In this document: in pieces, positions 1 to 10,025 of the stretch
Layout: every line of letters begins with the position of its first letter
How positions within the stretch are numbered: position 1 is the first letter of the stretch
DNA from: a virus
Length of the DNA: 64,000 bases
Virus record (IMG/VR): IMGVR_UViG_3300037483_001116
Location: 64,001-128,000 of that record
Strand: one strand, 5' to 3'
Position numbers and translations under genes: made by a program
The notes under the pieces: model-generated
What the model was told of the DNA's origin: nothing
The model's input: the letters and a program-made list of their open reading frames with translations, nothing else
Database searches by the model: none

Positions 1-161
1 CAATTACACCAACTCCCATTGGTGGGTTGGATCCGAAGACGGGGACCCCTCCGAACCCAACCCCTTACCATCCTGCAACCGGGCCCCCTGATAATTGGGC
101 CCGGGTTCAGGTTCCTGGTTCGGGGGGCCCACAAATTCGCGGTCGGCGGGCCCCCCGAAGT

Positions 162-611
162 TCAGCGCTGCAAGGTATTCCACGTCGGTGCGTAGGTCTT
201 TACCTTGAGGGTCATGCCGGCCTCGTTGGGCAGCCGGTCGCCTTTGCGCTGGTTGCACGGGTCGCAACACGCGACGGTGTTGACCCAGGTGTTTTTTCCG
301 TTCCGGGATACGGGCCGGATGTGGTCGACGGTGTTGCCGGCCGCGGCGCCGCAGTAGCCGCATTTGCGGCTGTCCCGGCGGAGCACACCTTGCCGGGACC
401 AGGTAGGTCCGGCGGTGTACCGCCATTTGGTGACGATGAAGTGAATGAGCCTGACGGACAGGGGCCGTTCGTAGGGGCCTATGCGTATTTCAGGTTCCGA
501 TTCGTGCACTTCCGCAACTCCGCGGAAGAGCATCCGGATGGCGTGCCTGAGGCTGACTCGATGCAATGGATCGAGGTCGGCGTTCAGGACCAAAACTGCT
601 GCTCCCTGCAT
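162..611 (-). CDS. HNH endonuclease (McrA-like, actinobacterial type)
   Basis: VLVLNAD N-terminus; RRD..CGYC...NTVDHIRPVSRNGKNTWVNTVACCDPCNQRKGD; AGGAGG RBS upstream. Confidence 0.92.
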   Translation of the reverse strand: MQGAAVLVLNADLDPLHRVSLRHAIRMLFRGVAEVHESEPEIRIGPYERPLSVRLIHFIVTKWRYTAGPTWSRQGVLRRDSRKCGYCGAAAGNTVDHIRPVSRNGKNTWVNTVACCDPCNQRKGDRLPNEAGMTLKVKTYAPTWNTLQR

Positions 612-654
612 CGAGTCACCTCCTTTGCGTGCAGAGGGTTCAATCTAGGTCACG

Positions 655-725
655 AGCGGCTACGGGGGCTCGAACCCCGGTGTCCGGCATGGCGAGCCGG
701 CGCACTACCACTGTGCTATAGCCGC
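655..725 (-). tRNA. tRNA-Gly(GCC)
   Basis: Cloverleaf GCGGCTA..TAGCCGC; anticodon arm CCGGC-TCGCCAT-GCCGG; T-loop TTCGAGC; U73; no CCA. Confidence 0.9.
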
Positions 726-843
726 ATGTGAGGGGTGGGTTCTAGCGTCAGACTTCAACTCTCATGGAGAGGCTGCTTCCAAGGCTTCAGCGACCTAAAG
801 CCCTACTTTCAATGCCAGGTCATTCTCCTGGACCAGAACCACG

Positions 844-916
844 AGCGACCTGCGGGGCTCGAACCCGCGACCTTTTCCTTGGGAAAGAAACGCGCTACCA
901 GCTGCGCCACGATCGC
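844..916 (-). tRNA. tRNA-Gly(CCC)
   Basis: Anticodon arm TTTCT-TTCCCAA-GGAAA; T arm GCGGG-TTCGAGC-CCCGC; U73. Confidence 0.85.
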
Positions 917-918
917 AC

Positions 919-1233
919 TTACTGTCCAGAATCTTTGCCGGTTGTACCTGGGTGCCATCGGGCCAGGGCCTCTGCTGCGAGTCGGCTTTGAGGTTGAAGT
1001 TGCTGACCTGGCGCCTTTGGCATTTGTCGACATTCAGCTGTTTCAGCTTTTGCTTGCTCCTTCTTCTCGGCCTGCCAGGTGGCTTCCAGCTGCCGGTTAC
1101 GGTCCCGCTTCTCCCTTACCTCGACCTTTTGAGCTTTCAGGATTGATCGGCGCCTCCTTCTGGAAGCATCCTGGAGCAGCACCTGCATCCGGAGGTGCTC
1201 GTACTCCTCCAGAGGAGTGTCTTGTCCAGTCAC
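919..1233 (-). CDS. hypothetical protein (charged, helical)
   Basis: ORF fills the gap between two tRNAs; GTG start 1 nt after the tRNA-Thr discriminator. Confidence 0.55.
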   Translation of the reverse strand: MTGQDTPLEEYEHLRMQVLLQDASRRRRRSILKAQKVEVREKRDRNRQLEATWQAEKKEQAKAETAECRQMPKAPGQQLQPQSRLAAEALARWHPGTTGKDSGQ

Positions 1234-1234
1234 G

Positions 1235-1307
1235 AGCCCCAGGTCAGATTCGAACTGACAACCTTCTCCTTACCATGGAGACGCTCCACCGAGTGAGCTT
1301 CAGGGGC
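1235..1307 (-). tRNA. tRNA-Thr(GGT)
   Basis: Anticodon arm TCTCC-ATGGTAA-GGAGA; T arm GTCAG-TTCGAAT-CTGAC. Confidence 0.88.
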
Positions 1308-1340
1308 AAAAACCTGACCCACGAGGAGCCAGGTGGATAT

Positions 1341-1742
1341 TCATTTTGACGGCCGTTTCGGCCGGACTATGGGCCCAATTCCCTGCCAGCAGGGGTCAGG
1401 GCTGAGGGTGACGGCGATGATTTCCAGGGACGTGAACCAGGGAAATGGTTGGTCGTCCAAGGTGTAGTCGGGGCCGAGATCCATCGCTGGATACAGGTAT
1501 CCGGAGAATGCTCCGATTCGTTCGTGGATCTGGATTTGGGCCCAGATGGCAGTGTCGTCCAGGTCCCAGACCCGGCCCACCTTCCCTACCACTTCAGCCG
1601 AGGTGACGGCCCCAGGCATGGTCAGGAGCGGGGCGCCGCCTTTGTGGAGCCGGATGGTGGCGTCTTTGGTGATGCCACGTCCGTCAACGGTGGGAATGTT
1701 TCGAAAGGCGATGGGGCCTGCCCACCAGAAGCTGTTGTTCAC
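1341..1742 (-). CDS. stand-alone paralog of the prohead protease domain, predicted inactive
   Basis: Aligns by eye with 14706..15902: PTVDGR/PTGDGR, VVGKVGRVWD/VVGKVNRIYD, PAMDL/PSVDL, IAVTLSPDP/IGVTLVPMP. Confidence 0.8.
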   Translation of the reverse strand: MNNSFWWAGPIAFRNIPTVDGRGITKDATIRLHKGGAPLLTMPGAVTSAEVVGKVGRVWDLDDTAIWAQIQIHERIGAFSGYLYPAMDLGPDYTLDDQPFPWFTSLEIIAVTLSPDPCWQGIGPIVRPKRPSK

Positions 1743-1743
1743 G

Positions 1744-1818
1744 TGCCGACCCCGGGACTCGAACCCGGACTGTCTCCCTTTTGAAGAGAGCGCCTGCTAC
1801 CAATTGGGCTAGGCCGGC
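1744..1818 (-). tRNA. tRNA-Leu(CAA), short variable arm
   Basis: Anticodon arm CTCTC-TTCAAAA-GGGAG; T arm CCGGG-TTCGAGT-CCCGG; A73. Confidence 0.85.
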
Positions 1819-1828
1819 ATCTTGTCTA

Positions 1829-2101
1829 CTACCAGTACTCTTTCCCCGGCTCGTAGTCTTCCCACACGATCTGTGGCTCGGCGTGGACGACGGTCCGCAG
1901 CTCGACCAGTTCCTTGTGGGCGTCGATGCAGTCGTCACAGATCCAGACCACCATGACGGGGGCGCTGTGGGTTGGGTCCCAGATGCGGCTGCCGTAGTTG
2001 CCGCCGGCCGTAAACCGGAGGCCGTGGCTGGGAGTTTTCTCGCCGAGGTCGTGTTCGCCGAAGACCAGCTCCAGCTTCTTGGCGCATTTGAAACAGTTCA
2101 C
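1829..2101 (-). CDS. small zinc-binding protein (CxxC...CxxC)
   Basis: MNCFKC ... WICDDC; lies between two tRNAs. Confidence 0.75.
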   Translation of the reverse strand: MNCFKCAKKLELVFGEHDLGEKTPSHGLRFTAGGNYGSRIWDPTHSAPVMVVWICDDCIDAHKELVELRTVVHAEPQIVWEDYEPGKEYW

Positions 2102-2102
2102 G

Positions 2103-2177
2103 TTGGGCCGACGGGCCTCGAACCCGCTTCTCTCTCGTTATCAGCGAGGGGTTTTCACCGGATTAAACTACCGCCCA
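2103..2177 (-). tRNA. tRNA-Ile(GAT)
   Basis: Anticodon loop CTGATAA closed by CTCG/CGAG; T arm GCGGG-TTCGAGG-CCCGT; one acceptor mismatch. Confidence 0.8.
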
Positions 2178-2187
2178 CGTTTTTGCG

Positions 2188-2258
2188 CTCGGGTACCTAG
2201 ATTCGAACTAGGACTACTGCATCCAAAGTACAGTGGGCTTCCATTACCCCATACCCGA
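2188..2258 (-). tRNA. tRNA-Gln(TTG)
   Basis: TCGGGTA..TACCCGA acceptor (U1-A72); anticodon arm CTGTA-CTTTGGA-TGCAG; G73. Confidence 0.9.
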
Positions 2259-2265
2259 TCGTACG

Positions 2266-2338
2266 AGCGGCCTGCGGGCACCGACCCCGCTGCTTCAGTT
2301 TGGAAGACTGACGTGTCCGCCGAGTTCACCAAGGCCGC
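2266..2338 (-). tRNA. tRNA-Gly(TCC), atypical T-loop
   Basis: Anticodon arm TCAGT-CTTCCAA-ACTGA; perfect acceptor stem; T-loop GTCGGTG. Confidence 0.78.
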
Positions 2339-2341
2339 ATG

Positions 2342-2406
2342 TTTCCCCTGCGGAGCTGAACCGCTCTGCCTGCATACAGGTGTGCTGCCGTTACACTAAC
2401 GGGGAA
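2342..2406 (-). ncRNA. tRNA-like RNA lacking an anticodon loop
   Basis: TTCCCC/GGGGAA acceptor; D arm GTGT-AACGGCA-GCAC; short arm CCTG-TATG-CAGG; T arm GCGG-TTCAGCT-CCGC. Confidence 0.65.
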
Positions 2407-2540
2407 TTGGCCTGGGCGGCGAGGCATTGCTGCCCGACGCCTTGCATGTCCCCACCCTATGGGCGCGGCCCAGGCTACGAAACTGACGTTGGCCCCTGAG
2501 TCAGTCAATCAGGGATGACGGGCACTAAGCGCCCATGCCG

Positions 2541-2613
2541 TACCCCACGCGGACTCGAACCGCGACTCCGAGCTTCTGATGACACGGTGTGTTGCCATTT
2601 ACACCAAAGGGGC
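2541..2613 (-). ncRNA. tRNA-like RNA with a 20-nt irregular anticodon arm (anticodon undetermined)
   Basis: Normal acceptor, D and T arms (CGCGG-TTCGAGT-CCGCG); anticodon arm CCGTGTCATCAGAAGCTCGG. Confidence 0.7.
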
Positions 2614-2699
2614 TTGAGACTGGCGTCGGCTCCCTGGGCCAGTCAACCGGGGTGGTGTAGCCGCGAATCCCGGGGAAGAATCCGGGGGCAGCATTGCCG

Positions 2700-2771
2700 T
2701 AGAGCGTAGGAGAATCGAACTCCTCTTCTTCTCGCTGAGAACGAGACGGGACACCACTACCCCAACGCTCC
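2700..2771 (-). tRNA. tRNA-Glu(CTC)
   Basis: Anticodon arm TCTCG-TTCTCAG-CGAGA; T arm AGGAG-TTCGATT-CTCCT. Confidence 0.85.
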
Positions 2772-2807
2772 ATTGGCCCTGGGAGGCGGTATCTCCCAGG
2801 GAGCTTG

Positions 2808-3830
2808 CTACTTGATGAGGTACAGGTACCGGGTGCCAGCGATCAACTTCCGGTTGATCGACGTCGACTGGACGAAGATGTCGAAGTCGGCGTTGTGGTT
2901 GGGGCTGACCCGTACGTTCATGTCGGGCAGGCCAATCATCTGCCGCGCGTCCCGGCCGCTGTACACCTTGTGGTCTTTCTTGCCGACCACGATGATGTCC
3001 TTCGACGCCTGGATCTCTTCGCGCTTCATCAGCTGGTAGAACCCGCGGCCGACCTGATAGGTGTGGCCACACTGCTTGGTGAACTCGTCGATGCGGCCGT
3101 CGGTAGGCACCGGCACCAGGATGTAGCTGCCTCGGGCCAGCGGCGCGAGGCCAGCCTGGGCGATGGTCTGGACGTTGACGGCGTCAGCCCCGGTGGAGAA
3201 CAGGCTGCGGGTTGACCGGACGCCGGTGGCTCGGGCCTGCATGTAGCTGTCGGTGGCGGCCCTGACCCTGTCGCCAGCCTCCGAGACACCCTTGGCGGAA
3301 TTCGCGTCCCAGATTTCGATGTTGCCGGCCGGGAAGCCGAACTTCTTCGCCTCGTGCACGCCGCGGGCGTTGGGCACCAAGGCGGCCAAGGTCCAGTGGT
3401 CTTTGAGGTCCTTGAGGGCCTGCTGCAACGTGTAGGCGGTATTGCGGCTGCGGTTTTCTTCGCCGTCGGTCAGGACGTAGACCAAGAACGAATGGTCCCC
3501 ATACCGTTCTGGTGTTTCGCCCAGGTCCCGGATGCTCTGCAAGGTGGCGTCGATGAACGCGGTGTTGCCGTTGGGGCGGTAGTACTGGGCGATGCTCGGC
3601 AGCCGGAGCACGTCCTTGTCCCACACGACGCAGTGAATGTTGGTGGGGTCGGCGAACGTCCAGACCGAGATGCGGGTTTCTTGGTCCAGTTCGCGGGACC
3701 GGCGGGCTAAGTGCTCGATCTGGCTGTCGGCGACTTTGACCAGGTCGTGCTTGTACGGGTCCATGGAGGTGGAGGCGTCTAACACGAGGCCGATGTGGTT
3801 GATGATGTTCGCGGCGGCTGCGGCGGGCAT
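2808..3830 (-). CDS. von Willebrand factor A (vWA) domain protein
   Basis: MIDAS motif LVLDASTSM; GNTAFIDA; VLTDGEENRS. Confidence 0.9.
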   Translation of the reverse strand: MPAAAAANIINHIGLVLDASTSMDPYKHDLVKVADSQIEHLARRSRELDQETRISVWTFADPTNIHCVVWDKDVLRLPSIAQYYRPNGNTAFIDATLQSIRDLGETPERYGDHSFLVYVLTDGEENRSRNTAYTLQQALKDLKDHWTLAALVPNARGVHEAKKFGFPAGNIEIWDANSAKGVSEAGDRVRAATDSYMQARATGVRSTRSLFSTGADAVNVQTIAQAGLAPLARGSYILVPVPTDGRIDEFTKQCGHTYQVGRGFYQLMKREEIQASKDIIVVGKKDHKVYSGRDARQMIGLPDMNVRVSPNHNADFDIFVQSTSINRKLIAGTRYLYLIK

Positions 3831-3974
3831 GCGTGGCTCTCTTCCAGGCGGAGGTACGGTGTGCCCCGTATCTTCCGGCTGGGGTATGACATTTTTGGCT
3901 AGGGAGGAACCGTGTACCCGGTCTTCCTGTCTCCCGCGAGACGCAGACCGTACGGCCGGTCTCTGTCCCTAACG

Positions 3975-4046
3975 TGCTCCCGGGCGGAATCGAACCGCCG
4001 TATCTCGGGCTTCAACCGAGTGCTACACCATCTCAGCTACAGGAGC
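3975..4046 (-). tRNA. tRNA-Phe(GAA)
   Basis: Anticodon arm CTCGG-TTGAAGC-CCGAG; T arm GGCGG-TTCGATT-CCGCC. Confidence 0.9.
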
Positions 4047-4157
4047 GCAGGATTCCTTTTCCCCCGACGCCGTGGCGCCGTGTGTGGTGGTACTGGGGAA
4101 TCCCTAGGACCGTCACCGTTGAGTCTGCCCGCACGGTCCCTGACACGAGCAGCGGAG

Positions 4158-4358
4158 CTATAGAGATTCCGGTTGCCGTACATCACCTTTGGCGAAGCTC
4201 AAAGTGACCACGGCCGACTTCGCCACGTTGGGGTGGTCGTAGAATTCGATGTACCTGGACTTGTGGCTCTTGAATTTGGCGACGAAACGGGTGCCGTTCC
4301 GCATCCAGACGATGACGCGTTTGCCTTGCTGTACGGACATGTGGCCGCTGCGTCTCAC
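4158..4358 (-). CDS. small beta-rich protein, possibly Sm/LSm(Hfq)-like
   Basis: GKRVIVWMRNGTRFVAKFKS resembles an Sm1 motif; GGAGG RBS upstream. Confidence 0.6.
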   Translation of the reverse strand: MRRSGHMSVQQGKRVIVWMRNGTRFVAKFKSHKSRYIEFYDHPNVAKSAVVTLSFAKGDVRQPESL

Positions 4359-4380
4359 TGGATTCCTCCAAGAGGATTTG

Positions 4381-4455
4381 GGCCCCGCCGAGGAATCAAA
4401 CCTCGGACCTCCAGCCCGATCGCGGGCTGGCGCTCTATCGATAAGCTATCGGGGC
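4381..4455 (-). ncRNA. tRNA-like RNA whose anticodon arm is an 8-bp stem with a tetraloop
   Basis: GCCCCG acceptor; D arm GCTT..GAGC; arm CCAGCCCG-CGAT-CGGGCTGG; T arm CGAGG-TTTGATT-CCTCG. Confidence 0.72.
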
Positions 4456-4568
4456 TTGTCGGCCCCGGCCCTTCACCGGCCAGTCCATGGCCGGCGGGTA
4501 CCGGGGCCTCTAAATGCTGCACCGTCCGGGGAAGGTGTTGGTGCAGCAGCTACGCGCGGGTCATGGCG

Positions 4569-6125
4569 TTACGCTACCGCGACCCGGTACACGTGGTGGC
4601 TGTACTCAGCTGCGAACGTGTCGGTGAATCGGCCACCGGTCACAGTCAAGGTCCGGTTCTCGCCGACGACCTCGACGCTTGTGCCGGTCACGCCGGCCGG
4701 CAGGGTGAACGTCTTGGCGCCAGCCGTTTCCTTAAGGCCGATGTCCGCGAAGATGTACGCCGAACCCTGGTAGACCTTCAGCATCGTGTCTGTACCGTTG
4801 TCGAAGTCATACCGGTAGGACTGGGTGTTGATGACCGGCGCCAGACCGCGCACCGTGGCGTTGAGGGCGGTGAGACTGGTTTCCATCGCACGCTCGCACG
4901 CAGATCCCTCGTCGCATGCCGGGTCGTTGTTGTGCATGAAGTACGAGATACCGCGCGCCTCGTGGATGATCATTGACCAGACGGCGCCCTCGATTTGGTC
5001 GGGCGTGATCGTCCGGGCACCAGCGTCGCCGAGTAGCGGCCGTGCCGTTTCGACAAATCCCCACGCCGGCTTGAGGGTGTTCGGCGCCATGAACGAGCGC
5101 ATTTGGTCGACCTGCCAGCCGTACGCCGCCGCGGTTGCCGGGTCCGCTCCGGCCGGCCAGTCCGGGGAGTGGAGCAATAGGTCGTCGACGTCGGGGCTGG
5201 TGTACGAGTACTTGTCGGCGCTGACCGAGTCCATCAGGGCAACGTGGTCGTCCATTGTGGTCGGTGCCCACCAGGTACGCGTGATGCCGTTGCCGAAGTT
5301 GGCGTGCTTGAACCGGCCGTCGTTGTATGCCGTTACTTTGTCCACGTAGGACTGCTGCACGGCCAGGCGGCCGTACTCGCCGTTGTCGTTGTTCCAGTCG
5401 GGGGTGCAGTCGCTGTAGCCCATCTCGCACTCATCGGAGATGAACCACGACACCACGCGCGGGTCGTTGCCCACCTCCGCCGGGGTCCATTCTTCTTGCT
5501 GGGCCATGACGAACATGCCCTGATTGGTCACGGTCGACATCGGCCAGATCGCGACGTTGTGCTCCATGGCCTGATACGTGTTGATGCCCAGGCTCTTGTA
5601 CCGGGCCGCGTCCTGCATCTTGCCGAGGAACACGCTGATCGGGAAGAAGTTGGGATCGGTCCAGCCGACCGACTGAGCTTTCGGGAAGTTGGTCCAGTAT
5701 GTCGATCCGCCCTCCCATGGGATGCGCGGCAGAGTGAGCACACCGCCCGATGGGGTCACGGTCGGCGTTGGCGTCGGAGTGGGCGTACCTGTCGACGGGC
5801 TTGGCGTCGGCGACACCGACGGACTTGGGCTGGCGGATGGGCTCGGGCTGGCGGACCCAGTTGGGTCCGGCGTCAGGCCGGCGCCGAAGATGGCGATGCA
5901 GTCGGTCAGCCAGTTCCGGGCTCGGGCCGACAATCCGGCCGTGCCCTGCGCCTTGCGGTCCACGCACCATTGGCCGAGCTGGTCGGGGGCCAGTGCCGGT
6001 ACCGACAGGTCCACCGGTGCGGCGGCAAGCTGACGTGGCGTGCCCCAAGATGACAGAAGAGTCCCTGCCACAAGAGCGACGGCGATGAGGGCCGACGTGA
6101 AAGCAATGCGTTTACTGCGTATCAT
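4569..6125 (-). CDS. secreted glycoside-hydrolase-like protein (signal peptide, Pro/Ser/Thr linker, TIM-barrel-like domain, beta-rich C-terminus)
   Basis: Start at MIRSKRIAF after an AAAAGGA RBS; hydrophobic leader; SPSPTP linker; LGINTY, WFISDECEM, WGFVET, IHEARGISYF. Confidence 0.7.
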   Translation of the reverse strand: MIRSKRIAFTSALIAVALVAGTLLSSWGTPRQLAAAPVDLSVPALAPDQLGQWCVDRKAQGTAGLSARARNWLTDCIAIFGAGLTPDPTGSASPSPSASPSPSVSPTPSPSTGTPTPTPTPTVTPSGGVLTLPRIPWEGGSTYWTNFPKAQSVGWTDPNFFPISVFLGKMQDAARYKSLGINTYQAMEHNVAIWPMSTVTNQGMFVMAQQEEWTPAEVGNDPRVVSWFISDECEMGYSDCTPDWNNDNGEYGRLAVQQSYVDKVTAYNDGRFKHANFGNGITRTWWAPTTMDDHVALMDSVSADKYSYTSPDVDDLLLHSPDWPAGADPATAAAYGWQVDQMRSFMAPNTLKPAWGFVETARPLLGDAGARTITPDQIEGAVWSMIIHEARGISYFMHNNDPACDEGSACERAMETSLTALNATVRGLAPVINTQSYRYDFDNGTDTMLKVYQGSAYIFADIGLKETAGAKTFTLPAGVTGTSVEVVGENRTLTVTGGRFTDTFAAEYSHHVYRVAVA

Positions 6126-6290
6126 CTGCGATCCTTTTCGGTGACCCCGTGTGGCCATTCGAGAAGATCCCGAATAGTTTGCACGGGCCAGCTTGTTGCT
6201 GGCCGTACGCGATTTGGAAGTTCGATGAGCTATGGAACGTGGAGCCGGTGCGGGCGGAGGTACTCGCTCCGGAGTTTCCCAACACCGACG

Positions 6291-6363
6291 TGGAGATGAG
6301 GAGATTCGAACTCCTTGCCTCTGCGTTGCGAACACAGCGCTCTACCAAGTGAGCTACACCCCC
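6291..6363 (-). tRNA. tRNA-Ala(CGC)
   Basis: G3:U70 pair; anticodon arm CTGTG-TTCGCAA-CGCAG. Confidence 0.93.
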
Positions 6364-6558
6364 AAGGGCCAGGTTGCGGAGAGGGATCGCACCTTCCGAT
6401 GGCCCTGAGGACCATTCCCCACTAAGGGAACCTAGAACACGACCTGGCCGAAAGAAAACGATCGCGCATCGATCCTCCCGAACCCCGCTGCAAACGGTAC
6501 TGGGTCAACCCCTGGAGGGGCAGCCTTTGCAGGACTGCCCCCTACGGGAGGATCAACG

Positions 6559-6633
6559 TGGAGGTAAACGGATTCGAACCGATGACTCCCACACTGCCAG
6601 TGTGGTGCTCTGACCGGACTGAGCTATACCCCC
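6559..6633 (-). tRNA. tRNA-Ala(GGC)
   Basis: G3:U70 pair; anticodon arm CCACA-CTGGCAG-TGTGG. Confidence 0.93.
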
Positions 6634-6852
6634 AAAGTTTTGACCCGCCTTTCTGGCCCTCAGGACGGGTCCACCGAGGCATCATCCAGCCGGCACAAAC
6701 GGCTGCTGCCATATCGGAAAGCTTGGTTGCGCTGGTCGTTGCTCCTTCGGCGACTTAATCCGACTCCCGGACCAACAAGGGACCACATGTCCGCCCCACG
6801 ATCCGGGCCGGGCTACCAGTCACGGCGCCCATATTTGCATCAACCAGCACAG

Positions 6853-6926
6853 TCGGGACGGAGCGATTTGAACGCTCGACCCCTCGCTCCCAAAGCGAGT
6901 GCCCTACCTGACTGGGCCACGTCCCG
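6853..6926 (-). tRNA. tRNA-Pro(TGG)
   Basis: CGGGACG acceptor; anticodon arm CTCGC-TTTGGGA-GCGAG. Confidence 0.93.
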
Positions 6927-7094
6927 AAGTTCCGGGCCCTTGGTCGATAAGACATCGGCTTTCGCCTAGACCATGCGCAACCAAGGGCCCGGAGCAATAT
7001 GAAGAAGTCCTGGCCCCAAACCCGAGAAGGTTCCTCGGACCGGCCTAGGCCCCTTGAGACAGGGGGGCCAGGACTTTTACACACATGCTGTCCA

Positions 7095-7114
7095 CTGTGA
7101 AGTTCTCAAGGAAC
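7095..7114 (-). promoter_or_regulatory. boxA-like antitermination element
   Basis: GTTCCTTGAGAACTTCACAG resembles the rrn-leader boxA; preceded by a hairpin at 7111-7134. Confidence 0.55.
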
Positions 7115-7139
7115 ACCCCGAAGCACTGGGGTTCTTGCG

Positions 7140-7212
7140 CAGGGGCGACAGGATTCGAACCTGCGACCTTCGGTTTTGGAGACCGACGCACCACCAGTTG
7201 TGCTACGCCCCT
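7140..7212 (-). tRNA. tRNA-Trp(CCA)
   Basis: AGGGGCG acceptor; anticodon arm TCGGT-CTCCAAA-ACCGA; G73. Confidence 0.95.
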
Positions 7213-7348
7213 ATGTATTCAGTTATGGAAGAGCCGCCCTTGTCCGAGATTCTAGTCCCGGGGGGCGGCTCCAGCTTCTTGAGCTTGAGCGGCCCTACAC
7301 CTTGGGCTCCCGGTAGAAGGAGGCTGGTCGGCTGGGGTTCAGCATGGC

Positions 7349-7378
7349 AGTATCGCCACACGGGAGCACCAGGTGCAA
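7349..7378 (-). promoter_or_regulatory. putative sigma70/HrdB-type promoter for the tRNA operon
   Basis: TTGCAC-N18-GATACT, about 135 nt upstream of tRNA-Trp. Confidence 0.45.
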
Positions 7379-7553
7379 CCGGTTGTGCGATTCTGTCCCG
7401 AACATGCTGTTACCTCCGACTAGGCGGCTCATCTGGAGCCTGTCACATTGTGGTGGCCTTCCGCAAGGATGTTCGTTCCTGTGTTGTCCGGCCTGACACG
7501 AGAACCGTACCCGTACCCAGGGGTGTGGGTCAAGGGGTTTGGTTCAAGATCTT

Positions 7554-7940
7554 CTACTCGCAGGCGACCCCGTCGCTGTCCCCGTCCCGGTACCAGCCGT
7601 ACTCCCCGTCCACCCCCTTGACGTACGGCCCGAGCCCATGCTGCTTGACCTCGGCACAGGTGGCATACCGAGGGTCCATCTGGTCTGGATGCGGGGCTAC
7701 CACGGGAGCCGGCGGGGCTGTGGTGGGTGTCGGCGGCATGGTGGTTGGCGCAACGGTCGCTGACGCAGGGGCCGGTGAGGATGTAGCTGACGACTCCGAG
7801 GCGACGACGCCGGAGATTGTTGGTATGACCTTGTCCTGGCCGGAGCCGAAGACCTTGGCCGCGCAGCAGCAAACGAGGACCAACGCCACGGCGACGCCCA
7901 GAGCGATGAGCCAGGGCCGGATCGATGGATTCAGCTTCAC
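7554..7940 (-). CDS. membrane-anchored Excalibur calcium-binding domain protein
   Basis: N-terminal TM helix; Pro/Thr linker; YATCAEV...YRDGDSDGVACE. Confidence 0.85.
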   Translation of the reverse strand: MKLNPSIRPWLIALGVAVALVLVCCCAAKVFGSGQDKVIPTISGVVASESSATSSPAPASATVAPTTMPPTPTTAPPAPVVAPHPDQMDPRYATCAEVKQHGLGPYVKGVDGEYGWYRDGDSDGVACE

Positions 7941-7949
7941 GTCGACAGG

Positions 7950-8156
7950 CTAGCGCGGCTTGGCCGGATCGTTCGAGGTAGCCCACACCAGGGCGCCCGT
8001 GCCGACGGCGGCGATGGCCCCAAGCGCAATCTCCCACACGGTGATATGCCCGTCGGCCAGGGCCGCGGTAATAGCTACGCCTAAAGAACCAGTGACGGCG
8101 ACAACGGCCTTAGCGATTGTCGGGCCTTGATCCAGGGGTTGTGTCATAGCTTCCAT
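7950..8156 (-). CDS. small two-TM membrane protein (holin-like)
   Basis: AKAVVAV...ALADGHITVWEIALGAIAAVGTGALVWATSN. Confidence 0.7.
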   Translation of the reverse strand: MEAMTQPLDQGPTIAKAVVAVTGSLGVAITAALADGHITVWEIALGAIAAVGTGALVWATSNDPAKPR

Positions 8157-8179
8157 TGTGCCCTGAAGATCGTGAACAC

Positions 8180-8214
8180 AAAAGGGCCCCGGAGCCGAAG
8201 CTCCAGGGCCCTTT
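8180..8214 (-). terminator. intrinsic terminator (possibly bidirectional)
   Basis: AAAGGGCCC-ggagc..gctcc-GGGCCCTTT hairpin with a U-tract on the minus strand. Confidence 0.75.
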
Positions 8215-8223
8215 CCGAGCGAC

Positions 8224-8349
8224 TTAGCGACCAGTGGTGGTCGCCGACGGAACGATGCTGAGGATCTGGAAGATCCACGGCTTGAATAGAACGATCAGAG
8301 CTATGGCTCCAATGATGGCCAGGACAGTTTTGACGTTCATCGGGGTCAT
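8224..8349 (-). CDS. small membrane peptide (41 aa, not in the ORF track)
   Basis: MTPMNVKTVLAIIGAIALIVLFKPWIFQILSIVPSATTTGR; AAAGGA RBS. Confidence 0.6.
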   Translation of the reverse strand: MTPMNVKTVLAIIGAIALIVLFKPWIFQILSIVPSATTTGR

Positions 8350-8383
8350 CATCCTTTGTCGTTGTTGTCGAACGCCGACAACC

Positions 8384-9997
8384 TCAGTCCTTGTGAGTCC
8401 AAGGCCACTCGGCTCGCTGTCCCGATTCGATCATCGGGATCATAGCGAAAGTTGCATCCGTCAATCCCGCGAGCTGGTGCCGGGTGCTGGAGGTGTCCAA
8501 CATAGCCGGTGCGTAACCCGCAAGATTGAGTGAATAGATCGGAACTGATGTCGGGATCTGGGATCCGACGTCGCCCTGCCAGTAGCCCCGGCCGGGCCCG
8601 AAGGTTTGCTCATCGGTGAAGATGGCAACCCGGTCGTGGCCCTTGAAGGTGGCCTTCAAGGCCGCCGCGGTGTGGGTGCCACCGCCGCGGACTTTTCGGT
8701 TGAACTCTTCCACCGACCGTAGAACGCTAGCGCCCTTCCGATGCTTGTGCTCCCAGACAGTGTCGTCGAACCCATACAGGTCCACCTGCTCGCCCTTGTT
8801 CGCCAAGGCGACACCGAACAGGGCCGCAGCGTGCAGAATCTGGATCTTCGACTCCTTGGACAGAGTCTTGCCGACCATCGACCCAGACGTGTCGATCAGC
8901 ACCAAGGTGCGATGCCGCCACGCCGGGATGTTGGCCGTCGAATACTGCAGCGCGGTCTCCAGGGCCTGCACCCACTGTGACCCTTGGGCGTACAGGTATG
9001 CCGTCAGGAACCGGAACGGCAACTGCCGCGAGTTCATGACGCCGGTCTGGCTTTCCAACCGCTCGCAGACCAGCCTGGTGGCCTCGCGCGAGATGCCGGC
9101 CTCCTGGAGGTTGCGCAGGTTCTTCAGCAATGCGCCGAAGCCCATGACTGGGATCAGGTTCTCCCAGACGTCGGCGGTCATGGCACCCCACGAGGAGGCC
9201 TGCTCCCACGTGATGCCGGCAGCCCGCAGAATCTCCTCCGAGTCGTCGCCGAACATCAGGTCCCGCTTCGCCCTGTCCGGCAGGGCCAGGATCGCCGCCC
9301 GCTTCTGCAGCATAGGCAGCTCTTCCGGGATCGGCGTCTTCGAGTCTCGCCGCGAATCCAGGATGTACTTGAACAGCGCCGACTGGGCGAACGACTTCGG
9401 CTCCGGGTGGCACAACTCGATCACGTCAGCCATGGTGACGGCCTTGTCGCCGCCGTTCCACTTGATCAGGGCGTATTCGTTGTACTTGGCCCGTGCCGCG
9501 TCCCCGAATCCACGCCGGATACCGGCTGGAATCTTGCGGCCGTAGGTGGCCAGCCAGTAGGCCAAGCCGTCGGCGACTTCGTCAGGCCGGGCGACCATGT
9601 AGAAGTCGCGCAGCAGCTGACGGGAAGGTCCGGCGGCCGAGCCTGGCTGACCGGCGGCCAGCATCGTCTTCGCGGCTTCGACGGCGGCGACGACCGCGGC
9701 GGTGCGGATGTTGGCCTTGTCCCGCAGCCAGGGGATGAACTCCAGAATCCAGGCCGGGTCCTCGGCGGCAACGGTCCGGACCAGAGTGGCGAGACGCGCA
9801 TTGCGGTCGTTGGCCTTCTCGTGGAAAGTCTCTTCGCCGTAGAAGGTAGACACGGCCAGGAGGAACAGGTCTGACTTGGCGTCACGGCTGTACGCCGGGG
9901 CACCTAAGTAGGTCTTGGTGTCCTGGGCGACAGTACGTAACGGAGAGCCGGCGTTGGGTGTGGCCGTCTTGGTGCCGCGCTTGTTGACGGTGGCCAT
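8384..9997 (-). CDS. Ro60/Rsr-like TROVE + vWA RNA-binding protein
   Basis: TROVE motifs DLFLLAV..EETFHE, ALLKNLRNL, SRQLPFRFLTAY; vWA LVLIDTSGSM, GGGT, FTDEQ; GGAGGG RBS. Confidence 0.95.
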   Translation of the reverse strand: MATVNKRGTKTATPNAGSPLRTVAQDTKTYLGAPAYSRDAKSDLFLLAVSTFYGEETFHEKANDRNARLATLVRTVAAEDPAWILEFIPWLRDKANIRTAAVVAAVEAAKTMLAAGQPGSAAGPSRQLLRDFYMVARPDEVADGLAYWLATYGRKIPAGIRRGFGDAARAKYNEYALIKWNGGDKAVTMADVIELCHPEPKSFAQSALFKYILDSRRDSKTPIPEELPMLQKRAAILALPDRAKRDLMFGDDSEEILRAAGITWEQASSWGAMTADVWENLIPVMGFGALLKNLRNLQEAGISREATRLVCERLESQTGVMNSRQLPFRFLTAYLYAQGSQWVQALETALQYSTANIPAWRHRTLVLIDTSGSMVGKTLSKESKIQILHAAALFGVALANKGEQVDLYGFDDTVWEHKHRKGASVLRSVEEFNRKVRGGGTHTAAALKATFKGHDRVAIFTDEQTFGPGRGYWQGDVGSQIPTSVPIYSLNLAGYAPAMLDTSSTRHQLAGLTDATFAMIPMIESGQRAEWPWTHKD

Positions 9998-10025
9998 GTC
10001 TTTCTCCCTCCAGGGGCAAACGAAG

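Follow-up and report, generated by a model that had tools for sequence, protein, structure and literature searches.

The DNA analyzed here is a 64,000-nucleotide (nt) window, the whole stretch from base 64001 to base 128000 of the 158,018-bp IMG/VR virus record IMGVR_UViG_3300037483_001116, and the subject is a set of small protein genes whose start codons directly abut the 3' ends of tRNA genes. The genome (62% GC, estimated to be 97% complete) appears to come from an uncultured phage. Its portal and major head proteins are akin to those of actinobacteriophages, with Actinoplanes phage phiAsp2 as the top portal match at 32% identity, and by these sequences its host is assigned to the high-GC Gram-positive (actinobacterial) bacteria. 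Megablast and tblastn searches of the region and of one of its open reading frames (ORF B, below) against cultured phages gave no match and no close cultured relative. ARAGORN detects 44 tRNA genes in the whole genome, all on the minus strand, of which 14 lie in the window between positions 654 and 7212, and the ORFs between them share this strand.

Read along the minus strand, tRNA-Gln(ttg) (2187–2258; ARAGORN and Rfam) is followed after 9 nt by tRNA-Ile(gat) (2102–2177), ORF C (1829–2101; a small protein of 90 amino acids (aa) with four cysteines, CxxC...CxxC), tRNA-Leu(caa) (1743–1818), ORF B (1341–1742; 133 aa, unassigned function), tRNA-Thr(ggt) (1234–1307), ORF A (919–1233; 104 aa, a charged orphan) and tRNA-Gly(ccc) (843–916; ARAGORN and Rfam). 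At the three tRNA-ORF junctions the strand reads N73-C-GTG, and that GTG is in each case the first possible start: at 1233 in ORF A, 1742 in ORF B and 2101 in ORF C. The ARAGORN 3' ends of these tRNAs (1234, 1743 and 2102) include the first C after the discriminator, and full-length Rfam RF00005 matches (1235–1307, 1744–1818 and, at 47.8 bits over the full model, 2103–2177) end on the discriminators themselves, U1235, A1744 and A2103. The two predictions therefore agree on the 3' ends, and the three junctions listed in a preliminary description of the locus, with their coordinates, are exact. That description placed a single C between discriminator and start codon; the C is there, but it is position 74 of the tRNA rather than a 1-nt leader, so that each GTG occupies tRNA positions 75–77. 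No room is left for a ribosome binding site outside the tRNA: the start codon directly follows C74, and the 18 nt before it belong to the acceptor and T stems. As had also been noted, nearly all of these tRNAs end N73-C-G and not CCA. In the window 14 of 14 have C74 and 13 of 14 have G75; across the genome the counts are 44/44 and 29/44, and CCA is encoded by only two genes, both tRNA-Met. On the 3' side, ORF C stops 10 nt before tRNA-Leu, ORF B 33 nt before tRNA-Thr, and ORF A 2 nt before tRNA-Gly(ccc).

This placement of start codons is exceptional. When ATG or GTG codons opening at least 40 codons were counted at offsets from −20 to +60 around the discriminators of the 44 tRNAs, position 75 held such a start after 8 of them, and each of the 80 other offsets held between 0 and 2. 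With a background of 0.31 per offset, the spike has a Poisson P of 1.7e-9. Protein ORFs directly flanked by same-strand tRNAs without a 5' spacer thus number three in the window and eight in the genome, and the stops of the eight lie 10, 33, 2, 393, 149, −1, 2 and 6 nt ahead of the next tRNA. Four of the eight end in TAG, which is unremarkable given that TAG ends 35% of the long ORFs in this genome. A conserved CGTG trailer does not account for the whole pattern, because ATG stands at three of the eight junctions. When two relatives' genomes (G001 and G002) are added to the present one (G000), all 18 position-75 starts are ATG or GTG and none is TTG, although 18 cases are too few for the lack of TTG to be more than suggestive.

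Evidence that these frames are genes comes from composition and conservation. GC content by codon position is 0.62/0.38/0.86 in ORF C, 0.60/0.49/0.74 in ORF B and an atypical 0.70/0.46/0.55 in ORF A. Homologues of ORF C at 88, 62, 36 and 31% identity keep M1, C3, F4, K5 and C6 invariant, and dN/dS (the ratio of nonsynonymous to synonymous substitution rates) against relatives is 0.17–0.33. Homologues of ORF B at 78% and 55% identity are conserved starting at residue 1, with a dN/dS of 0.34. The preliminary description had claimed independent support for two of the starts, from a CxxC motif beginning at residue 3 of ORF C and from protease homology near the start of ORF B. The first claim is borne out, C3 and C6 being invariant in five homologues. 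The second is not: ORF B has no Pfam or PHROG match, and a faint language-model lead to prohead-protease clusters is all that points that way, but its N terminus is nevertheless conserved from the first residue. An AlphaFold2 model of ORF B from a three-sequence alignment has a predicted local distance difference test score (pLDDT) of 36 and gives no usable fold. Nor do ORFs A and C match anything in Pfam or PHROGs, and a pattern scan of viral contigs for ORF A and for ORF B was likewise negative. Initiation at the next in-frame Met would remove the invariant N-terminal CxxC of ORF C or 41 conserved residues of ORF B. This N-terminal conservation, together with starts at the homologous codon in relatives' loci L002 (ORF C) and L007 (ORF B), identifies the GTGs of ORFs B and C as genuine starts by sequence comparison. 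ORF A is less informative. It has no homologues outside near-identical strain copies, and a search of 5.8 billion proteins matches only ORF A itself. The source gene caller begins it at ATG 1188, 15 codons downstream of the GTG, and the other contigs that carry it say nothing about those 15 codons because they are near-identical. No similarity was found between ORF A and a 74-aa ORF that adjoins tRNA-Leu in L007.

Five further position-75 ORFs lie just upstream of the window. The ORF after tRNA-Tyr (GTG, 171 aa) has a P-loop, GVSTAGKTT, at residues 8–16 and a dN/dS of 0.06. The ORF after tRNA-Ala(tgc) (ATG, 176 aa) matches the homing-endonuclease PHROG phrog_5046 from residue 3, despite a low GC content of 0.44 at third codon positions (GC3). 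Coding GC patterns are seen in the ORFs after tRNA-Lys(ctt) (ATG, 75 aa) and tRNA-Ser(cga) (GTG, 168 aa), and a 42-aa ORF with ATG follows tRNA-Val. A coding signature, with GC3 well above GC2, is present in five of the eight position-75 ORFs (B, C, the tRNA-Ser(cga) and tRNA-Lys(ctt) ORFs and the P-loop gene). Homologues exist for four of these five, and dN/dS, computable for three, ranges from 0.06 to 0.34. Most of the eight are real genes that start at the codon abutting C74.

A check suggested in the preliminary description was whether the spacing is conserved in related phages, and the junction is indeed kept or re-created, even behind a different tRNA. Loci of relatives carry L-numbers here, L001 belonging with G001 and L002 with G002. 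C74 is found in 49 of 51 tRNAs in G001, in 35 of 35 in G002 and in 28 of 28 in Streptomyces phage LuckySocke (L015); the position-75 spike recurs in both genomes, with six such ORFs in G001 and four in G002. ORF C adjoins tRNA-Ile(gat) here and in L005, and tRNA-Gln(ttg) in L001/G001 and L007, with C74|GTG in all of them. The P-loop gene starts with GTG behind tRNA-Tyr here but with ATG behind tRNA-Arg(ccg) in G001, and the ORF after tRNA-Lys(ctt) opens with ATG here and GTG in G001. Another pair, tRNA-Gly(tcc) followed by an ORF of 72–85 aa, is shared by G002 and L007. The ORF B homologue in L005 has the same C|GTG junction; that in L007 stands behind another small ORF and has ATG at the homologous codon. 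In L002/G002 a 14-nt spacer separates tRNA-Gln from the ORF C homologue, and in it a canonical Shine-Dalgarno (SD) sequence, GGGGAGGA, is followed by 4 nt and an ATG at the homologous codon.

Gains and losses in the relatives fall at the same boundary. ORF B is gone, flush with C74, from the near-identical strain contigs L016 (640–685) and L017, where tRNA-Leu(caa), a 36-nt spacer and tRNA-Thr follow one another, the indel being ORF B itself (window 1341–1742). ORF A together with tRNA-Gly(ccc) (window 843–1233) is missing from L005 (3367–3666), and this pair looks like one inserted cassette. The L005 trailer after tRNA-Thr, C|GTGGTTCTGGTCCAGGAG, is the sequence that follows tRNA-Gly(ccc) here. 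tRNA-Ile is absent from L001 and L007.

Pairing of the upstream sequences with the anti-SD ranges from −1.5 to −6.6 kcal/mol at the eight starts, none reaching −7, and the values are no different from those at internal in-frame start codons (P = 0.15). No canonical, accessible SD is found 5–10 nt upstream, the candidate bases being within tRNA stems. An SD hidden in the acceptor stem, which the preliminary description had offered as an alternative, is thus poorly supported. The missing SD is not itself diagnostic, because SD use is weak across the genome. An ordinary arrangement is present in the same array: the HNH endonuclease gene (162–611; Pfam HNH_5/HNH) has a 42-nt leader after tRNA-Gly(gcc) (654–725), with a canonical AAAGGAGGTG, 5 nt and ATG. 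Reading of the eight upstream sequences revealed no −10-like TANNNT hexamer at −12 to −7, and a scan for sigma-70-type promoters on the minus strand of window positions 1–8000 found none, with a consensus that captures actinobacterial promoters poorly. Over their first 36 nt, the position-75 ORFs of all three genomes are weakly structured (−4.6 versus −8.9 kcal/mol, P = 1.6e-7), as expected of genuine initiation sites. The controls were internal windows beginning with RTG (ATG or GTG), not canonical starts, so this measure cannot separate leaderless from leadered starts.

Two bodies of published work bear on the position of the start codons. In Propionibacterium acnes, differential RNA sequencing (dRNA-seq) places cleavage within the encoded CCA "always between the Cs" (Lin et al. 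2013, PMC3848588), and dRNA-seq in S. coelicolor shows the majority of CCA-encoding tRNAs cut at C|CA (Romero et al. 2014, PMC4681348). By our reading of Table S4 of the latter study, at least 20 of 29 CCA-less genes are cut as N73-c|nn, and another eight agree on the assumption that the annotated end takes in three bases past the discriminator (PMC4681348). In mycobacteria, leaderless translation needs nothing more than an AUG or GUG at the 5' end, and only ATG or GTG works (Shell et al. 2015, PMC4633059). In Caulobacter, each additional 5' nucleotide about halves leaderless translation (PMC8459731), which would explain selection for an exact phase. A cut after C74 would release an RNA that begins exactly with GUG or AUG, without a 1-nt leader. 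Combined with the leaderless rule, it would account for the presence of C74 in all tRNAs here, for the precise phase and for the restriction of all 18 starts to ATG or GTG.

Taken together, these observations suggest that the minus-strand array is transcribed as long precursors with small protein genes between the tRNAs, and that the host cuts the precursor 3' of each tRNA right after C74. The tRNA would be left ending in N73-C, a substrate for the host CCA-adding enzyme, and the downstream RNA would carry a 5'-monophosphate with GUG or AUG as its first bases. In Actinobacteria such an RNA would be a leaderless mRNA, translatable without an SD. On the 3' side, RNase P would cut at the following tRNA, which in the window begins 2–33 nt beyond the stop. 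Every gene would thus leave the precursor as a separate short mRNA, its expression coupled to the maturation of the tRNA ahead of it. Neither a CCA-adding enzyme (PF01743) nor RNase Z (PF12706) is encoded by the phage, so that processing would fall to the host, and a phage-specific processing enzyme of either family was rejected. We consider, with moderate confidence, that tRNA-punctuated leaderless mRNAs are the best reading of the position-75 genes. The proposal in the preliminary description that tRNA 3' processing frees leaderless mRNAs thus stands in part: the junction conserved behind changed tRNAs, the SD and ATG that appear together in L002, and the published C74 cuts support it, and we infer that the C74 cut and translation from a 5'-terminal AUG or GUG apply to this phage in its actinobacterial host. 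A broader proposition is tentative, plausible but falling short of probable: that phage tRNA arrays in Actinobacteria double as mRNA punctuation, a host endonuclease cutting after C74 to yield a tRNA and a 5'-monophosphate leaderless mRNA, with accessory-gene expression stoichiometrically coupled to tRNA maturation. In such arrays, "RUG-ORF" and "ORF+tRNA" cassettes would be gained and lost at C74|N75 and would survive only if the leaderless phase is restored.

Several points weigh against punctuation by leaderless mRNAs. Documentation of the C74 cut is limited to host tRNAs in two actinobacterial species (PMC3848588, PMC4681348), and the leaderless reporter work used primary transcripts rather than processed 5'-monophosphate RNAs (PMC4633059). 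ORF A is an orphan of uncertain coding status, and the GC pattern of the ORF after tRNA-Val is not coding. CGTG also follows tRNA-Gly(gcc) and tRNA-Gly(ccc), where it opens just 2 and 15 codons. LuckySocke, with C74 in 28 of 28 tRNAs and mostly T at position 75, has no ORF at that position, so the arrangement is not obligatory; by this contrast, C74 is a general feature of such tRNA genes and the adjoining genes are a lineage trait. At five of the eight starts, G-runs pair with the anti-SD at −4.7 to −6.6 kcal/mol, in a genome where only 40% of long ORFs reach −7. These last values also favor ordinary 30S initiation at the same GTG or ATG on the unprocessed precursor, through weak SD-like G-runs in the 3' half of the tRNA or independently of an SD, the flush junction being no more than maximal packing. 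Strong SDs are lacking at many genes of this phage anyway, and position 75 is the nearest possible start, since position 74 must be C. We nevertheless judge such internal initiation unlikely, while giving it real weight. The bases that could act as an SD are part of the acceptor and T stems, within a stable cloverleaf that ends only 1 nt before the start codon, and as a set they pair no better than internal in-frame start codons. Packing predicts a spread of short offsets, and what is seen is a single spike at position 75 with nothing credible until at least 8 nt. TTG never appears at position 75, and canonical SDs are found where room exists, at the HNH gene and at the ORF C homologue in L002.

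The remaining explanations are less probable still. Indels among close relatives end exactly at C74|N75 (ORF B in L016/L017, ORF A with tRNA-Gly(ccc) in L005, tRNA-Ile in L001/L007), which also counts against leaderless punctuation as the sole cause, because recombination history may contribute to flush junctions. tRNA 3' ends share short identical strings, such as GCTC-GTG or AC-GTGAAC, and some tRNAs keep a CGTG although no gene follows them. At the shared strings, illegitimate or homologous exchange could move "ORF" or "ORF+tRNA" units and leave the junction as a scar. As a full account this is improbable: it leaves unexplained the translation of the genes, the purifying selection on them, the ATG junctions (three here) and the ATG/GTG switches between relatives, and LuckySocke, with the same C74 ends, has no such junction. 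As a contribution to the origin of the junctions, recombination at shared tRNA 3' strings is probable, and it is compatible with leaderless mRNAs released by processing. A promoter inside each tRNA gene, with transcription starting at the A or G of the start codon, would yield primary leaderless mRNAs independently of processing, and most known actinobacterial leaderless mRNAs are indeed primary transcripts (PMC4633059, PMC4681348). The absence of TANNNT hexamers and the negative consensus scan argue against it, as does the fact that the upstream tRNA differs between relatives and the junction stays; we regard it as very improbable. Finally, it is hardly credible that the GTGs are chance or an artefact of ORF listing, merely part of a CGTG trailer with the true starts downstream. 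The two CGTG trailers that open no real ORF fit this idea, as does the source caller's choice of a downstream ATG for ORF A, but the Poisson P of the spike, the conserved residues beginning at positions 1–6 of ORFs B and C, and the conserved N-terminal segments that a start at the next Met would forfeit all speak against it.

The two short CGTG frames each follow a tRNA-Gly gene. After tRNA-Gly(ccc), which ends N73(U)-C74, the 15-codon GTG frame (795–842) looks like an old tRNA trailer and not a gene, because the same sequence follows tRNA-Thr in L005. After tRNA-Gly(gcc), which also ends N73(U)-C74 (ARAGORN and Rfam), positions 75–83 form the two-codon frame GTG-ACC-TAG (645–653). This frame is kept in L001 and L005 together with the following ATTGA, and may be a start-stop mini-frame or a plain conserved trailer. 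A looser arrangement is seen about 0.5 kb ahead of the window, where tRNA-Thr(tgt) (genome 63419–63492) is followed by a 129-codon ORF with a strong coding GC pattern. Its ATG lies 8 nt after C74, behind a leader, GCAGCCCC, that has no SD, and the ORF may represent the same theme with a short leader. The longest-ORF start of a minus-strand 588-aa frame (4569–6335) falls inside tRNA-Ala(cgc) (6290–6363); the true start is probably a downstream Met ahead of the signal-peptide-like MIRSKRIAFTSALIAVALVAG.

Several of the tRNAs are unusual in themselves. tRNA-Ile(gat) has a U1-A72 first pair and a G6/G67 mismatch in the acceptor stem, and the same tRNA occurs in L005 and L016. tRNA-Gly(tcc) (2265–2338), an ARAGORN call with no Rfam listing at the gathering threshold, has an unusual T loop, GGGGTCGGTGCCC. 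An ARAGORN tRNA at 2540–2614, under the Rfam gathering score and without an assigned amino acid, has an enlarged anticodon loop ("tcag"). Similar odd tRNAs occur in relatives ("ctaa" in L001 and L006, "ccgg" in L007), and they are possibly four-base decoders or tRNA mimics. At genome 57405–57477, 6.5 kb ahead of the window start, lies an amber-suppressor-like tRNA with anticodon CUA, labeled "Pyl" by ARAGORN, whose first base is overlapped by the TAG of the 75-aa ORF that follows tRNA-Lys(ctt). The frequent use of TAG as a terminator of long ORFs indicates that the genome is not obviously recoded. At position 75, G is found in 57–69% of the tRNAs of G000, G001 and G002, T in 61% of those of LuckySocke, and mostly t in S. 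coelicolor genes by our reading of Table S4 (PMC4681348); the contrast between G75 and T75 may stem from differing hosts or from what the cutting enzyme prefers. LuckySocke (1–18.7 kb) and window positions 1–10000 also have in common a module consisting of a tRNA array, a Ro-like RNA-binding protein and a vWA/TerD-like protein, which may point to a host like Streptomyces or to an accessory cassette present in both.

Full-text literature searches found no paper on phage genes made leaderless by tRNA punctuation or RNA processing. Both components, cleavage after C74 and leaderless translation, are already known in Actinobacteria. If confirmed, the proposed mechanism would be the first natural case in a prokaryotic system of tRNA 3' processing creating leaderless mRNAs, and would give mitochondrial tRNA punctuation a counterpart in a bacterial virus. 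Discussion of phage tRNA arrays usually centers on codon usage or defence evasion alone; they would in addition serve as expression signals for the genes between them. The actinobacterial cleavage "between the Cs", otherwise unexplained, would acquire a function, a tRNA-C-RUG-reporter would offer a compact genetic handle for finding the responsible nuclease, and the translation of processed 5'-monophosphate leaderless RNAs would become open to test. For annotation, gene callers that need a ribosome binding site or avoid tRNA-adjacent starts will truncate or miss such genes, as with the 15 codons of ORF A.

Among known systems, the thrU-tyrU-glyT-thrT-tufB operon of E. coli is an ordinary tRNA-mRNA co-transcript. 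The phage array would resemble it in having tRNAs and protein genes on a common transcript, but that operon, like the HNH gene (AAAGGAGGTG-N5-ATG) and the ORF C homologue of L002, keeps an SD leader. Another possible parallel, the model in which MazF makes leaderless mRNAs, is debated. MazF cleavage in E. coli was proposed to generate such mRNAs (Vesper et al. 2011, as cited in PMC4681348), and the likeness lies in an endonuclease cut just ahead of a start codon that is proposed to yield a translatable leaderless mRNA. MazF, however, is a stress toxin acting at ACA sites without any tRNA, and the cut proposed for the phage is a structure-guided step of tRNA processing. With the actinobacterial leaderless mRNAs (PMC4633059, PMC4681348) the phage genes share a predicted 5'-terminal start codon, the use of only ATG or GTG, the lack of an SD, and a host phylum with robust leaderless translation. 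Known examples are promoter-made primary transcripts with a 5'-triphosphate, in contrast to the processed monophosphate end predicted here, so the position-75 genes would be a variant and not a standard member of this class. Cleavage "between the Cs" (PMC3848588, PMC4681348) likewise involves tRNA genes that encode N73-C74 without CA, and a downstream fragment that starts at position 75. It is known for host tRNA maturation only, where no function is proposed for the downstream fragment, and position 75 is mostly t in S. coelicolor but mostly G in the phage clade.

The nearest overall likeness is to the tRNA punctuation of animal mitochondria, reportedly described by Ojala, Montoya and Attardi in 1981. 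The differences are plain. The phage is a bacterial virus relying on host enzymes, its punctuated genes are small accessory ones, only 8 of its 44 tRNAs would punctuate a gene, and no stop codon is completed by polyadenylation. Moreover, its predicted 3' cut falls after C74, whereas ELAC2/RNase Z cuts after the discriminator. In both systems, however, protein genes are directly flanked by tRNA genes on one strand, and stops abut the next tRNA or fall a few nt short of it, one phage TAG even overlapping the first base of a tRNA. As in mitochondria, excision of the tRNAs would set both ends of mRNAs that have neither leader nor SD.

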